NCBI GenBank assembly: GCA_016187035.1
Contig: JACPKL010000010.1
Coordinates: forward strand, 26,014 to 90,013
DNA: 64,000 bases
Direction: 5' to 3'
Source: Candidatus Daviesbacteria bacterium
GTDB taxonomy: Bacteria; Patescibacteriota; Microgenomatia; Daviesbacterales; UBA10151
Shown: positions 57,154 through 62,538 of the stretch, piece by piece
Layout: the number at the start of each line of letters is the position of its first letter
Numbering within the stretch: the first letter of the stretch is position 1
Notes under the pieces: generated by a model
The model's database searches: none
What the model was told of the DNA's origin: nothing
What the model saw: the letters and a program-made list of their open reading frames with translations, nothing else
Program-made: the position numbers and the translations under genes

Positions 57154-60100
57154 CTACTTCTTTTCCATCTCACTAGCATCTATCACTTCAAAATTACTTG
57201 ATTCAGCTTCTAATTCTGATTCGTTGGCAGTAGGCTGCATTTCTAAAGTTTGCTCCAATTGAGCAACTTCCTGTTTTATCTCTGCCTTTTCCTCAGTTTC
57301 CTGAGTCTGGATCAATTTAGCTCCAATAGTGTCTACTGATAATCCTAATGCCTGAAGCTCTTTCACTAACACTTTAAACGATTCAGGAATTAAAGCCTGA
57401 GGAATTTCAATCCCCTTAACGATTGCCTCAAAAGCTTTAGCGCGTCCAACTACATCATCACTTTTAAGAGTTAACATTTCTTGTAGGATATGCGCTGCAC
57501 CATATGCTTCAAGCGCCCAGACTTCCATCTCTCCTAATCTTTGTCCGCCCATTTGGGCTTTTCCGCCTAGGGGTTGTTGAGTAACCAATGAATATGGACC
57601 AGTTGAGCGGGCATGGATTTTTTCTTCCACCATGTGGATTAATTTCAAAATGTAATTTCTGCCAACCACAATAGTTCTATCAAAAGGTTCACCAGTTTTT
57701 CCGTTAATTAATTTAACTTTACCATCAACTGGTAAATTAGCTTTTTTAAGCTCTTCAACCAACTTTTCCTCGGATAGCTTCTCAAAAACTGGCGCAGCTA
57801 CGTGATAACCTAATCTGGTGGCTGCAAATCCCCAATGAGTTTCTAAAAGTTGTCCCAGATTCATCCTTGATAGAACTGATAAAGGTGAGATGATAATATC
57901 AACTGGAGTACCGTCCTCTAAATGAGGCATGTCTGCAATAGGCACAATTTTTGAGATGACTCCTTTGTTTCCATGTCTGCCTGCTAGCTTATCGCCTTCG
58001 GTCACTTTTCTGATTTGAGCTACTTTAACTTTAATCCTCATTAAGATTCCTGTATCCAACTCATCTCCTTCTTCTCGGGATAGAATTTGTACTCCGATCA
58101 CAGTACCTCTTTCGCCGTGAGGAATCCTCAAAGAAGTATCTCTGATCTCTTTAGCTTTTTCTCCAAAGATAGCACGAAGCAACCTTTCTTCTGCAGTTAA
58201 TTCTGTTTCACCTTTTGGTTGCACTTTACCAACCAAAATATCATTTGGTCCAACCTCTGCACCAATTCTGACTATTCCTCTTTCATCTAAATTAGCCAAA
58301 GATTCTTCTGAAACATTCGGAATGTCGCGGGTTAATTCTTCAGGTCCTAACTTAGTTTCTACTACATCTATCTCATATTCTTCAATATGAATACTTGTTA
58401 AAAGATCCTCTTTGACTAATCTATCTGAAATGACAATGGCATCCTCGTATCCTAATCCCTCAAAGCTCATATAAGCAATCAGCAGGTTTTGGCCTAAGGC
58501 TAACTCTCCATTCTTTGTGGCAGCTCCATCAATCAACAGATCTCCTTTTTTGACCTTAGCTCCAATTTCTACCACTCCTTTTTGGGAATAACAAGTACCT
58601 TGAGGTGAATGAACAAATTTTTTAATTTCATATTTATATTCATTTTTTACAGCTTTCAAGATTAATTTTTTCCCATCAACATAAGTAACTACCCCATCCT
58701 CAGGTGCTTTTACTATCCTACCCATATTTTCTGCCACAATTTTTTCCATCCCTGTTCCTACCACAGGAGCAGAAGGAAGCAATAATGGAACTGCTTGGCA
58801 CTGCATCTGAGTACCCATTAAAGCCCTGTTAGCATCATCATTGGCTAAAAATGGAATAAGCGAAGCGGAAATTCCAAAAATCTGTTGAGGAGATATATCA
58901 ATTAAAGAAATATCTGAAGCTTTACCTTCATAGAAAACACCTTGATAACGGGTAGGTACCCGATCAGGAATGATATTGCCTCTATCATCAATTTCCACTG
59001 TAGCCTCAGTAATATGGAAATTCTCTTCATCATCAGCTGATAAGTAAATTATCTCATCTGTTACTTTATTTTTTCCTTTTTGCTGTATTATTTTTCTATA
59101 GGGAGTTTCCAAAAATCCGTATTCATTTATTCTGCAGAAAAGCGCCAAATAGGTAACCAATCCAATATTTTGCCCTTCTGGTGATCTGATTGGATCAATT
59201 CTGCCATACTGAGAATGATTAATATCTCTGACTGAGAAAGAAGCCCGATCTCTAGTTATTCCTCCAACACCCATAACAGACAATCTTCTTAAGTGGTCTA
59301 ATTCAGACAAAGGATTAACCTGATCTAAAATGCTAGAAAGTTGAGAGGAACGGAAAAATTCATTAATTGCCGCAATTACTGGCTTGGCATTGATTAAACC
59401 CCCAGGGGTCACTTCTTGATCCTGAGCCGTTAAACTCATTCTCTCTTTAATAATTCGTTCAAGTCTTAATACTCCAATCCTAAAAGCGTTTTGCTGTACT
59501 AATTCTCCAGCACATCTAACACGCCTGTTTGCTAAATGATCAATATCGTCTAATTTACCTTCTCTATTACTTAATCTAATTAGATATTTCAAAGCAGCGA
59601 TTATATCTGTTTTAGTTAAAATCCAATTCTCTTCAGTATTTGATAAGTCTAGATTTAATCTTTTATTAATTTTAAAACGGCCTACCTTGGTTAAATTATA
59701 TCGACGAGAGGCAAAAAACATGCCTTCGAGCAAAGCTTTAGCATTATCTAAAACAACCGGATCTCCTGGCCTCATTTTTCTAAAAATCTCAAGTAAAGCT
59801 TCCTCGCTATTTTCAGTTGGATCTTTAGATAAAGTAACCTCAATGAATTTGTTCTCACCATTATCAACATCCTTAAACTGCTCAATTATTGCATCAGTTT
59901 CAGAAACTCCAATTGCTCGAAGAAAGGTAGTTGCAGCAAATTTTCTTCTTCTATCAATCTTGGCAGTTAAAACACCTGTTCTAGAAACAGAAAACTCTAA
60001 CCAAGAACCTCGATAAGGACGGATTTCTGCAGAATATAATCTTTTACCAGTAATTGGATCATCCATTGCTGAAAAAAATACACCAGGTGAACGAACTAAT

Positions 60101-60507
60101 TGATTAATAATTACTCTTTCAACACCGTTAATAATGAATGTACCTTTATCAGTCATTTGTGGTATGTCTCCCAAAAACACTTCCTGCAAACTTTTCTGAC
60201 CTGTTTGTTTATTAATTAGAGTCGCTTCTATTTTCAGAGGAGCATCAAAGGTAACTCCTTTTTCTCTAGCTTGCTCAGCAGTATATTTACCTTTACCGAA
60301 ATAAAAGGACCCTAATTCTAGGGTCCAATTTTTTCCTGTAAAGTCCTCCACAGGAGAAATTTCAGCAAGGACTTCTTTAATACCTTCTTTAATAAACCAA
60401 TTATATGAATCTAGTTGAATTTGGATTAAATTCAATTGAGGAACCAAGTTTGGTGATTTACTCCAATATTTACGTTCGTTTTTCTGTATATCTAATTTCG
60501 CTGACAT
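57154..60507 (-). CDS. rpoB: DNA-directed RNA polymerase subunit beta
   Basis: 1117 aa. A Rif-region-like FFGSSQLSQF variant (FFRSSQLSSILDQ), GRHGNKGV and GGQRLGEMEVWALEAYGA. Confidence 0.95.
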   Translation of the reverse strand: MSAKLDIQKNERKYWSKSPNLVPQLNLIQIQLDSYNWFIKEGIKEVLAEISPVEDFTGKNWTLELGSFYFGKGKYTAEQAREKGVTFDAPLKIEATLINKQTGQKSLQEVFLGDIPQMTDKGTFIINGVERVIINQLVRSPGVFFSAMDDPITGKRLYSAEIRPYRGSWLEFSVSRTGVLTAKIDRRRKFAATTFLRAIGVSETDAIIEQFKDVDNGENKFIEVTLSKDPTENSEEALLEIFRKMRPGDPVVLDNAKALLEGMFFASRRYNLTKVGRFKINKRLNLDLSNTEENWILTKTDIIAALKYLIRLSNREGKLDDIDHLANRRVRCAGELVQQNAFRIGVLRLERIIKERMSLTAQDQEVTPGGLINAKPVIAAINEFFRSSQLSSILDQVNPLSELDHLRRLSVMGVGGITRDRASFSVRDINHSQYGRIDPIRSPEGQNIGLVTYLALFCRINEYGFLETPYRKIIQQKGKNKVTDEIIYLSADDEENFHITEATVEIDDRGNIIPDRVPTRYQGVFYEGKASDISLIDISPQQIFGISASLIPFLANDDANRALMGTQMQCQAVPLLLPSAPVVGTGMEKIVAENMGRIVKAPEDGVVTYVDGKKLILKAVKNEYKYEIKKFVHSPQGTCYSQKGVVEIGAKVKKGDLLIDGAATKNGELALGQNLLIAYMSFEGLGYEDAIVISDRLVKEDLLTSIHIEEYEIDVVETKLGPEELTRDIPNVSEESLANLDERGIVRIGAEVGPNDILVGKVQPKGETELTAEERLLRAIFGEKAKEIRDTSLRIPHGERGTVIGVQILSREEGDELDTGILMRIKVKVAQIRKVTEGDKLAGRHGNKGVISKIVPIADMPHLEDGTPVDIIISPLSVLSRMNLGQLLETHWGFAATRLGYHVAAPVFEKLSEEKLVEELKKANLPVDGKVKLINGKTGEPFDRTIVVGRNYILKLIHMVEEKIHARSTGPYSLVTQQPLGGKAQMGGQRLGEMEVWALEAYGAAHILQEMLTLKSDDVVGRAKAFEAIVKGIEIPQALIPESFKVLVKELQALGLSVDTIGAKLIQTQETEEKAEIKQEVAQLEQTLEMQPTANESELEAESSNFEVIDASEMEKK

Positions 60508-60699
60508 GAGTAGATGGCCTATTTACTCCCTTTTTTAAAGGGTAATTGGACAGTTTAGATTCCGTCTTGTATAGGGTCAACAAAAAGAAAGCATACGTAC
60601 TCGTACGCCTTTAAGTTTTTTATTTGACTATTGGCAGTTTATCACAACAATCTCTATCCGTCAATAGGCCTATAATTATGTCAACGAATAGCGTACTTA

Positions 60700-60728
60700 T
60701 TGATTTCTAATGGGTAGGTCTCTAAAAT
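60700..60728 (+). promoter_or_regulatory. promoter of the orphan gene, -10 box 7 nt from the ATG (leaderless architecture)
   Basis: TTGATT (60700-60705), 17 nt, TAAAAT (60723-60728), aaagcta, ATG (60736). Confidence 0.5.
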
Positions 60729-60735
60729 AAAGCTA

Positions 60736-62073
60736 ATGGCAGAATCCCAATCTTCCCCTGAACAATCAACCACAGTTATGCAACATACTTCCTCATCTAA
60801 TGATCGTCAAGAGATACGAGAGTTTTCTAAATTAACTCCAGAAGGCAGACAGACAAGAAGTGAAACAGCATTAGCAGTTTTATCAGCAAGAAGAGATACT
60901 CGTGCTGCGGACGCTAGAATTGCTGAACTTAAATCAATCATTAATAGCATCTCAGCAGATTCTGAACAAAGGAGGGAAAGGATAGCGAGTCTGCAAGCTG
61001 AATTAGATACAGAAAGAGAGGATTTAGCACAAACAGAAGCTTCATTGGTAAGTAAGATCTATCATTTGTTAGGACAAAAGTCTCAAGCAGTCGATGTTAG
61101 AGAACATCAAGTCAAAGTTACGGAAGGGTTCACTCAATATCACCATGAAGAAATCGCTAGAAACGATAAGCAGTTAAGAGAGTCTGGAGAAACTTTAAAG
61201 AGATTTCAAGAAAGAAAAGTTGGTTTAAGAAGTGCAAAGAGCCTTCTTGATGATTTTTATACAGAACAGGCAGGCAGATTTGAAGAATATCGGAAAGATC
61301 AAGAACGAAGGAAGATGATTTCTCAAATTACAGATATAGCAAATGTTGCAGATGAGTATGGGGTGTATTTTATACATGGAATTTTACCTGCATTCGCTGA
61401 GGATGTAATGGGTGGTGAAGCAATGTCGCAACGAAACCCTTTGCTTAAATGGAATGCAGGATGGCGCCAGCGTACTGCAATCGTTGTGGGATTGCAGCCT
61501 GATATATCAGTATCAGCCATAAAACCTGGAGATACACCTGTCAATATGTGGTCAAGAATGGGAGTTATTATAAATGGAGGGAATCTCGTTAACGCTCATC
61601 CTAGGGATGCATCTACCGTAGTGAAAGGAATTCAAGAACAGCAATCAGCCCACCATGACAAAACATTTTATGAAATGCAACCTGAGGAAGTAGGAGAAAA
61701 CATTCGAGCAGCTATCGAAGGTCGAGGACCAAAGGACTATAATGAATTTGTTGTTCGAGATCCAGAAATAGCTGGTTTTTATTTATGTCTAGATGCTGAC
61801 GATCCAGAAAGGATAGTATATAGAACACCTATTAATAAATATATCGAAGGAATTATTGGCTATCTAACAGAAAACAATATTCCTCTCTATATCGTTCATA
61901 ATGGAGCTGTATATGAAGGAGAACCTATTTTAGATAGTTCAGGGAAAATCATTATTCAACGCGTGGGTGAACCACTTAGTCCTTCAGACATAATCAGGAG
62001 AAAGATTACAATTGATTATTCCCATCAAGAGACAATGAAGCAAGAAGGACTAGCCTCTTTAAATCTTTCTTAA
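60736..62073 (+). CDS. orphan protein: ~200-aa N-terminal coiled coil plus ~240-aa C-terminal globular domain of unknown family
   Basis: 445 aa and the only plus-strand gene in a ~33-kb minus-strand block. The N-terminal half is rich in R/E/Q/A heptad-like sequence. The C-terminal half (GVYFIHGILPAF...YNEFVVRDPEIAGFYLCLD...) matches nothing I recognise. It has its own promoter and terminator. Confidence 0.6.
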   Translation: MAESQSSPEQSTTVMQHTSSSNDRQEIREFSKLTPEGRQTRSETALAVLSARRDTRAADARIAELKSIINSISADSEQRRERIASLQAELDTEREDLAQTEASLVSKIYHLLGQKSQAVDVREHQVKVTEGFTQYHHEEIARNDKQLRESGETLKRFQERKVGLRSAKSLLDDFYTEQAGRFEEYRKDQERRKMISQITDIANVADEYGVYFIHGILPAFAEDVMGGEAMSQRNPLLKWNAGWRQRTAIVVGLQPDISVSAIKPGDTPVNMWSRMGVIINGGNLVNAHPRDASTVVKGIQEQQSAHHDKTFYEMQPEEVGENIRAAIEGRGPKDYNEFVVRDPEIAGFYLCLDADDPERIVYRTPINKYIEGIIGYLTENNIPLYIVHNGAVYEGEPILDSSGKIIIQRVGEPLSPSDIIRRKITIDYSHQETMKQEGLASLNLS

Positions 62074-62075
62074 CG

Positions 62076-62098
62076 TACCCGCTCGCGGGTATGGTTTT
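62076..62098 (+). terminator. rho-independent terminator of the orphan gene
   Basis: tACCCGctcgCGGGTa-tggtttt begins 3 nt after the stop codon. Confidence 0.6.
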
Positions 62099-62166
62099 GG
62101 CTGATTTTGAGGCTAAATTTATTAAAAGTCTGCTTCTTTATTCCTCTAAATACATATAAGAGGAGT

Positions 62167-62538
62167 TTATAGGCAAGTATCGCCAAAATATTTTCTTGCT
62201 ATTTGTTTATCTTTTTTTATTTGCGTTATCAGCTTATCAACACTGTGGAATTTTTTATTTTCCCTGATCTTTTTTAAAAGTTTTACCGTAATCCACTGAT
62301 TGTAAATATTTTTATCAAAGTCCAAAATATAAGTTTCAGCCTGGTATTTTTTTTCATTAAAAGTTTCAGCTTTACCTATAAAAGTTAGGGCAGGATAAAT
62401 AGATCTACTTAGTTTGATTTGAGAGATGTATATCCCTTCAGGAATATTTTTAGTTAAATTAATATTAGCTGTAGGAAAACCCAACTTTTTCCCTCTTTGT
62501 TGATGTTTTCGGACTTTCCCCCAAAATTTATACCTCAT
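62167..62538 (-). CDS. monofunctional riboflavin kinase (RibF C-terminal domain type)
   Basis: 123 aa: GKVRKHQQRGKKLGFPTANINL...YPALTFIG. No FAD-synthetase domain. Confidence 0.75.
   Translation of the reverse strand: MRYKFWGKVRKHQQRGKKLGFPTANINLTKNIPEGIYISQIKLSRSIYPALTFIGKAETFNEKKYQAETYILDFDKNIYNQWITVKLLKKIRENKKFHSVDKLITQIKKDKQIARKYFGDTCL

Follow-up and report, generated by a model that had tools for sequence, protein, structure and literature searches.

Several described proteins combine an antiparallel coiled coil with globular parts at its base or end. In EnvC and PcsB a long coiled coil of this kind is followed by a C-terminal globular domain, in SMC, Rad50 and LmuB the N-terminal segment meets the C-terminal one at the base of the coiled coil, in colicins E3 and E9 a disordered N-terminus and a coiled-coil hairpin precede a catalytic-looking C-terminal domain, and in HP0958/CT398 (3na7, 4ilo) a coiled-coil hairpin is followed by a small C-terminal domain. 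Here we describe a gene whose product shares these features, found upstream of rpoB in a stretch of 64,000 nucleotides (nt) of Candidatus Daviesbacteria DNA (assembly GCA_016187035.1, contig JACPKL010000010.1), referred to below as the window. We found that 60736-62073 is a genuine protein-coding gene under purifying selection, that it is a self-contained accessory cassette of ~1.5 kb in a variable slot before an intact rpoB promoter, and that it belongs to a large family, mostly of the Candidate Phyla Radiation (CPR)/Patescibacteria, which is nameless in curated libraries. The cassette consists of the following features.

60666-62166, no strand assigned: accessory segment of ~1.5 kb (promoter, gene and terminator), delimited by alignment with the relatives L211 and L210; boundaries approximate.
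60700-60728, plus strand: promoter-like site TTGATT-17-TAAAAT, 9/12 matches in a consensus scan; putatively used.
60736-62073, plus strand: coding sequence of 445 amino acids (aa) and a stop codon, identical to the NCBI entry 'hypothetical protein HYW41_04265' of Candidatus Daviesbacteria.
62074-62103, plus strand: GC hairpin resembling a terminator, CGTACCCGC-TCGC-GGGTATG, with a short tail rich in U; convergent with the flavokinase gene at its 3' end.

We first consider the slot in which the cassette lies. On one side stands rpoB (57154-60507, minus strand) with rpoC beyond it, and on the other flavokinase, YceG/MltG, RuvX and sortase genes, in agreement with the initial annotation, which had placed the gene between the rpoB promoter region and ribF-mltG-ruvX. 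When the same region was opened in relatives through RpoB homologues of 84-88% identity, the sortase-ruvX-yceG…rpoB-rpoC-rpsL-rpsG backbone was kept in all five informative relatives and the flavokinase gene preceded rpoB in four of the five, with alaS and a large open reading frame (ORF) upstream wherever a relative's locus reaches that far. A sixth relative, L209 (RpoB 88%), was left out because its contig ends just upstream of rpoB. The contents of the slot are as follows, with the RpoB identity to the window in brackets.

Window: this gene between flavokinase and rpoB, on the opposite strand.
L213 (88%): flavokinase-rpoB gap empty, 128 nt.
L211 (87%): flavokinase-rpoB gap empty, 140 nt.
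L210 (87%): HepT and MNT toxin-antitoxin pair (L210:5053-5944), on the opposite strand.
L214 (86%): 411-aa DDE/rve-like transposase (L214:4444-5679), on the opposite strand; does not belong to the family.
L212 (84%): nothing inserted; flavokinase replaced by a PMT_2 glycosyltransferase.

Every insert in the slot points opposite to the backbone strand, and a search of the insert edges for flanking direct or inverted repeats or a target-site duplication gave nothing convincing. The flavokinase-rpoB slot is an insertion hot spot in Daviesbacteria. That the gene was inserted upstream of rpoB had been proposed from the window, and the empty slot in two relatives with 87-88% RpoB identity bears this out, as does the synteny of the region, in which the gene is absent from the relatives and the backbone is conserved. 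Daviesbacteria RpoB homologues at 75-88% identity number more than 100 in the database, and the nearest homologue of this protein (P0002), among about 5.8 billion protein clusters, is 54% identical. Because the slot is empty in close relatives and the nearest homologue is this distant and lies in a different context, a lineage-specific acquisition, or repeated loss elsewhere, is well supported.

The rpoB promoter and leader form a context that lies outside the inserted unit and was left intact by the insertion.

60508-60665, minus strand: rpoB promoter and leader, with TTGACG at 60664-60659, a 17-nt spacer and an extended -10 element TGTGATAAACT; conserved in L210 and L211.

Across Daviesbacteria the -35 element upstream of rpoB reads TTGAC(G/T) and the region is strongly conserved. 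The leader carries a GC hairpin AAGGCGTACGAGTACGTATGCTTT followed by a U-run (60611-60588, minus strand) and looks like a leader or attenuator; an Rfam scan around the locus, including the rpoB leader, matched no family. No rplKAJL genes lie beside rpoB, as had been remarked; the lineage typically shows this arrangement, which is not an effect of the insertion.

We next examined the strand setting and the composition of the gene. From 27 kb to the end of the window there are 42 minus-strand and two plus-strand ORFs. One of the two is probably a spurious ORF that overlaps the ribosomal-protein operon, which leaves the gene as the only credible plus-strand gene in a minus-strand run described as ~33 kb long. 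Its GC content (0.387; window mean 0.351, z = +0.97) is comparable to that of rpoB (0.369), rpoC (0.374) and tuf (0.389), its GC content at third codon positions is 0.236 (z = -0.39 against the window), and its synonymous-codon log-likelihood of -0.972 (z = -0.08) exceeds that of 31 of the 68 other ORFs. CGN codons make up 34% of its arginine codons, against 22% in the window and 31% in rpoB. The impressions that the gene is GC-richer than its flanks and unusual in its CGN arginine codons thus do not hold, and comparison of GC and codon usage with the neighbours shows a gene that is not compositionally foreign. Of the horizontal acquisition proposed initially, what stands is an accessory, rare and lineage-specific gene, acquired here or lost repeatedly elsewhere; the foreign composition falls away.

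The 445-aa plus-strand ORF itself is real. ATG 60736 is the sole start codon past an in-frame stop at 60718, and this start is supported by the homologue alignment; no paralogue of the gene was found within the window. A non-functional gene, be it a chance ORF or a decaying remnant, might be suspected from an annotation that is hypothetical only and from the lack of a library match, but it is ruled out by conservation and we regard it as vanishingly improbable: the full-length ORF is present, identical, in four samples, hundreds of homologues share invariant residues, the predicted structure is of high confidence and the codon usage is native. The gene's own terminator-like GC hairpin was found at 62074-62093, beginning 1 nt past the stop codon (-18.5 kcal/mol, z = -2.6). 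As for its own promoter, the sequence TTGATT-17-TAAAAT does lie 7 nt 5' of the ATG, a site of this kind being weak evidence by itself; with 11 promoter-like sites in the region against 7.0±2.7 in shuffles the enrichment is slight, and the promoter is plausible, not proven. No Shine-Dalgarno-like sequence was found in 60718-60735, and if the promoter at 60700-60728 is used, the mRNA would be leaderless or near-leaderless.

The gene had been called an orphan, and a word-index search of the protein clusters seemed to agree, yielding three proteins with the query, with P0002 and P0003 (26% identity) as the only two homologues, and likewise three with the core profile. An exhaustive HMMER search with a profile built from the alignment of the query, P0002 and P0003 returned 486, 303 and 88 clusters at E ≤ 1e-3, 1e-10 and 1e-30, respectively, counted as representative clusters at 50% identity and mostly from Patescibacteria/CPR. 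The label of orphan is therefore wrong; the apparent status is an artefact of the word-index search, because identity within the family is low (20-35%). At the DNA level, the GD…W…G…G…A…D motif, turned by hand into a degenerate pattern, led to loci that hmmsearch then verified, and patterns drawn from alignment A5 led to none. Verified genome matches come from Komeili-, Taylor-, Giovannoni-, Nomura-, Falkow-, Magasanik- and Tagabacteria and other Parcubacteria, with further carriers among three divergent Saccharibacteria, one Omnitrophota genome and a few metagenome-assembled genomes with doubtful labels, and metagenomes contributed twenty-two additional family loci. From lineage to lineage the core is 18-42% identical, in a star-like fashion, and the copies of the three Saccharibacteria resemble one another no more closely than they do those of Parcubacteria.

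Two observations concern the labels of these carriers. The loci L019 and L036, labelled Taylorbacteria and Nomurabacteria, have heads that are 99% identical and the same neighbours (a Mur ligase upstream and Ddl downstream), and the two labels probably describe near-identical organisms. Furthermore, family members lie on contigs binned as Gammaproteobacteria or Bacteroidota (L012, GC 0.43; L088, GC 0.58; L077), which are either mis-binned CPR contigs or real non-CPR occurrences.

With 143 homologues AlphaFold gave a confident model (mean predicted local distance difference test score, pLDDT, 92.1; predicted template-modelling score 0.80; model m3b3961a8ba30), whereas an alignment of three sequences gave an unusable one (pLDDT 44). 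Behind a disordered segment (residues 1-20), in an N-terminus rich in Ser, Thr and Gln, three parts are predicted.

60805-60891, plus strand: basic N-terminal helix motif (I/V)RxF(S/T)K…G…R…TA…R, residues 24-52, from alignments; pLDDT 96-98.
60838-61329, plus strand: antiparallel coiled-coil stalk, residues 35-198, from the AlphaFold model and Foldseek matches.
61333-62070, plus strand: α/β head domain of ~245 residues, residues 200-445; pLDDT mostly >90.

This fits the earlier description of a coiled coil followed by a C-terminal domain of ~240 aa, the helices of the model spanning residues 21-198 and the α/β domain residues 200-445. In the stalk (~165 residues) a helix of 74 residues (35-108) would run out to a tip at 109-116, and helices 117-163 and 167-198 would run back. 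In the N-terminal motif, whose helix covers residues 21-33, R28, F30, G37, R41 and R52 are invariant among close relatives, and the pattern [IVL][RK]x[FYW][ST][KR] occurs in 84 of 151 family members. The head carries invariant or near-invariant residues at H214 (61375-61377), S258/S260 (61507-61515), D291 (61606-61608) and Y335-N336-E337 (61738-61746), as well as N234, K/R246, P255, G265-D266, W272, G276, G282, A287 and G390.

Upon examining the architectures across the family, we find a short, query-like form of about 410-530 aa and a long one (about 600-650 aa) to which another C-terminal domain of ~230 aa is added, ending in LAFHLYGFAEQA…GD. Head-only proteins of 266 aa also exist (L035/L109), giant Omnitrophota proteins (L020, L183) contain the head within them, and the 2129-aa P0096 has two XRE-type helix-turn-helix (HTH) domains directly before it. 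HD-like domains are fused N-terminally in P0004, P0058 and P0150 and C-terminally in P0098; the H…HD…D motif of HD domains is absent from the query. The N-terminal extensions of P0009 and P0012, which by eye seemed ART-like (ADP-ribosyltransferase-like) and kinase-like, found no support in Pfam, NCBIfam or PHROG. Because transmembrane-like segments occur in 2 of 151 members and a signal peptide in 1 of 151, the family is essentially cytoplasmic, and the surface role that had been entertained is unlikely given that single signal peptide; in the query the maximum hydropathy over 19 residues is 0.93.

The head has no placeable relative in the libraries that we searched. Pfam, NCBIfam, PADLOC and PDB-sequence searches with the query gave only sub-threshold coiled-coil noise and PHROGs gave no match, and the core-only head profile against Pfam and PDB sequences and the family consensus against Pfam matched nothing, in line with the initial remark that the C-terminal domain shows no motif that can be placed. 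What the full and core-only profiles did return from PDB sequences was coiled-coil noise and a chance OPRTase (E = 0.052), and metallophosphoesterase, HKD, SxxK, HNH and sirtuin motifs sought by eye lack key residues or have them unconserved (e.g. K263). Whole-model Foldseek searches of PDB and BFVD gave no match at E < 1e-3, with the coiled coil driving the matches that appeared: EnvC was best (8tzl_E, E = 8.5e-3), and HP0958, PcsB, SMC/Rad50 arms, YscO and colicin E3 stalks were also found. From searches with the whole model the head is at most a candidate for a new fold.

These matches allow the family to be set against the described systems. EnvC matches the whole model at probability 0.82 with TM-scores of 0.23-0.28 and a root-mean-square deviation of 31 Å over 390 columns; in contrast to EnvC and PcsB, the protein has neither an M23 (LytM) nor a CHAP domain (Pfam and NCBIfam, E ≤ 10), no export signal and different conserved head residues, and the gene is accessory and rare. 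Unlike SMC, Rad50 and LmuB, the query has no Walker A, Walker B or signature motifs, and its N-terminal segment is a basic helix without a glycine-rich loop and not a half-ATPase; the SMC_prok_B, LmuB and Rad50 matches are sub-threshold and confined to the coiled coil (SMC_prok_B 12.8 bits against a cut-off of 567). The colicin E3 and E9 likeness lies in the stalk (Foldseek probability 0.72-0.96), whereas immunity gene, translocation and receptor homology and plasmid context are lacking and the family is chromosomal and mostly CPR. HP0958/CT398 have a zinc ribbon, whereas the family head is a 245-residue α/β domain without zinc-ribbon cysteines.

One alternative for the head is a very divergent ART-like, NAD-using domain. 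H214 would end strand β1 (FVHG), an STS-like element would lie on β2 (L-S-T-S-T-I in many members) and the catalytic Glu would stand in Y-N-E-(F/L)-V-V, which resembles the Y-N-E-Y-I-V-Y around E988 of PARP1, while FVHG resembles its HGS; the PARP1 sequence used in the comparison is 100% identical to PDB entries. The motifs are placed at the ends of predicted strands, as they are in ARTs. The invariant H214, S258-x-S260 and E337 fall on strands in the right order, though the pattern is short and non-specific, and the spacings of about 45 residues from H to STS and about 77 from STS to E lie within the range of pertussis-toxin-like ARTs. However, the likeness to PARP and diphtheria-toxin-class ARTs has no statistical support in sequence or structure: the core profile, set against the PARP1 catalytic domain with hhalign, aligned over only 22 columns around YNE at a probability of 1.3%, the consensus found no ART, PARP or DarT match in Pfam even at E ≤ 10, no ART is among the 50 best whole-model Foldseek matches, and there is no macro, ARH or antitoxin partner. 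We therefore consider an ART-like head improbable.

We also investigated the genomic contexts of the family. The closest homologue, P0002, is encoded on the same strand as ftsA and ftsZ, between the two, and P0003 follows recA. Neighbours related to wall or division were a Mur ligase and Ddl (L019/L036), a Mur ligase (L068), Alr (L056/L129), a penicillin-binding protein (L054/L216) and YceG/MltG with sortase in the window, and contexts examined later brought SmpB, PyrG, RNR, ArgRS/IleRS, Tag, RNase Y, PolA with a PD-(D/E)XK protein, Fpg and FKBP/BipA. A comparison of the neighbouring genes revealed no conserved operon partner.

Such contexts bear on a second alternative, in which the protein is a housekeeping cytoskeletal or scaffold protein of division or peptidoglycan synthesis, a cytoplasmic analogue of EnvC, PcsB, EzrA and GpsB whose stalk would dock onto the division or wall machinery and whose head would regulate an enzyme. 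The ftsA-ftsZ position of the closest homologue, the wall-related neighbours and the top Foldseek matches by E-value (EnvC in the FtsEX complex and PcsB, 4cgk, with RipA and RipC stalks as well) are consistent with it, but the TM-scores are those given above, with the coiled coil driving the matches, and a LytM or CHAP domain and a signal peptide are missing. A link to the wall or to division is seen in only about 6 of the 26 independent contexts, and later contexts added only Alr in L129, which repeats L056, and L216, from the organism of L054; a peptidoglycan or division linkage was promising in the first loci and, diluted by further contexts, was moved down to an alternative. The closest relatives lack the gene and few Daviesbacteria have it, a pattern that does not suit a core division factor, and we rate a division scaffold as rather unlikely. 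The literature on coiled-coil and cell-division proteins in Patescibacteria yielded nothing relevant.

A third alternative takes the protein for an episymbiont effector exported against hosts or competitors by a non-Sec route, such as a VirD4-coupled type IV-like system, with a colicin-like layout. In L027 the start of the family gene overlaps a VirD4/TrwB-like ATPase gene, and L007 has two genes of this type downstream, but these are 2 of about 26 contexts. The disordered Ser/Thr/Gln-rich N-terminus, a stalk resembling the receptor-binding hairpins of colicins E3 and E9 (2b5u, 5ew5) and the occurrence of the head in the giant Omnitrophota proteins and in multi-domain fusions would suit such an effector; an adjoining immunity gene, a conserved small neighbour and a colicin or toxin match in Pfam are nevertheless lacking, and the conserved end is the N-terminal motif while the C-terminus, the usual site of type IV secretion signals, is variable. 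Export as an effector thus appears distinctly unlikely.

Weighing these lines together, we tentatively favour, at somewhat short of an even chance, a cytoplasmic protein in which the head and the basic N-terminal helix form a pocket for catalysis or ligand binding, whose substrate is probably phosphorylated or of nucleotide type, and which has an accessory conflict-type role. Judging from residue conservation and the predicted model, the pocket would comprise H214, N234, S258/S260, D266, D291 and Y335-N336-E337 from the head and R28, K32, R41 and R52 from the N-terminal helix, returned beside the head by the hairpin topology. The substrate would most likely be a nucleotide, an NAD-like compound or a nucleic acid, the stalk may serve in oligomerisation or as a sensing or lever arm, and the role would be defence-like or toxin-like and accessory, not housekeeping. 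Points counted for the nucleotide and conflict reading are the HD-like fusions, the XRE-type HTH domains of P0096, the family gene of L012, flanked by the genes for a SulP transporter and for HsdR of a type I restriction system, the VirD4/TrwB-like genes of L027 and L007, and the HepT/MNT pair or transposase found in the same slot of relatives. An effector or defence role may be entertained on circumstantial grounds only: the family is patchily distributed, the gene lies in a hot spot, and some few neighbours and fusions are of conflict type.

Several observations weigh against this pocket and conflict-type role. The composition of the gene is native, not foreign; searches of GenBank phages, PLSDB plasmids, IMG/VR and PHROGs gave no match to the family; and PADLOC-DB v2 models gave only coiled-coil noise (LmuB E = 0.0079, BnzB, DruC). 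All-against-all BLAST across about 26 independent contexts found no conserved neighbour, most neighbours are ordinary housekeeping genes and conflict-type ones are few, and no immunity or antitoxin ORF was found in 60508-60735 or 62074-62166, nor a conserved small neighbour across the loci. Additionally, the HD fusions are rare and below curated thresholds (Pfam HD E = 0.0048, HDIG E = 0.0036-0.01), the placement of the N-terminal motif beside the head at the stalk base comes from topology and confidence scores, and the fold search that gave no head match was run on the whole model and could miss a known head fold.

A more far-reaching version, which we hold to be doubtful, would make the head a new enzymatic fold, or an ART-like one beyond recognition, and the gene a stand-alone single-gene conflict module, largely CPR-specific and turning over at hot spots. 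Such modules may be gained and lost at the rpoB promoter, in the ftsA-ftsZ gap and downstream of recA.

Some further observations were made around the locus and its relatives. The window gene labelled ribF (62167-62538, minus strand) encodes a 123-aa flavokinase-only protein (PF01687) without the FAD-synthetase domain, as do its counterparts in relatives (120-125 aa). The 5' part of the rpoB ORF contains, at 60307-60326, a GC-rich inverted repeat with perfect arms of 8 bp, GGACCCTA-ATTC-TAGGGTCC; both strands carry T-runs there, and the site is scored as terminator-like in both directions. Between rpsG and fusA, Daviesbacteria relatives carry small ORFs of 63-74 aa whose only match is to the N-terminal coiled-coil domain of GreA/GreB (L209:9146-9337, L211:14768-14989, L214:14044-14268), and the matching interval of the window, about 50.0-52.4 kb, holds several small ORFs. 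At L149:7850-11473 (plus strand) lies an unusual fusion, a 1208-aa IleRS-type class I tRNA synthetase with a histidine-phosphatase domain (His_Phos_1) at residues 526-692 inside its catalytic domain.

CPR/Patescibacteria make up a large share of bacterial diversity, and much of their small genomes is without annotation. For the method, the case is instructive in that a word-index search suggested an orphan and an exhaustive profile search gave 486 clusters. The rpoB-upstream hot spot is useful for studying the turnover of accessory genes in reduced genomes. The family itself comprises hundreds of clusters with a confident predicted structure, conserved candidate catalytic residues and no Pfam, NCBIfam or PDB relative, and because it is large, conserved and without known relatives it offers a clean, tractable target for a new domain and possibly a new activity.

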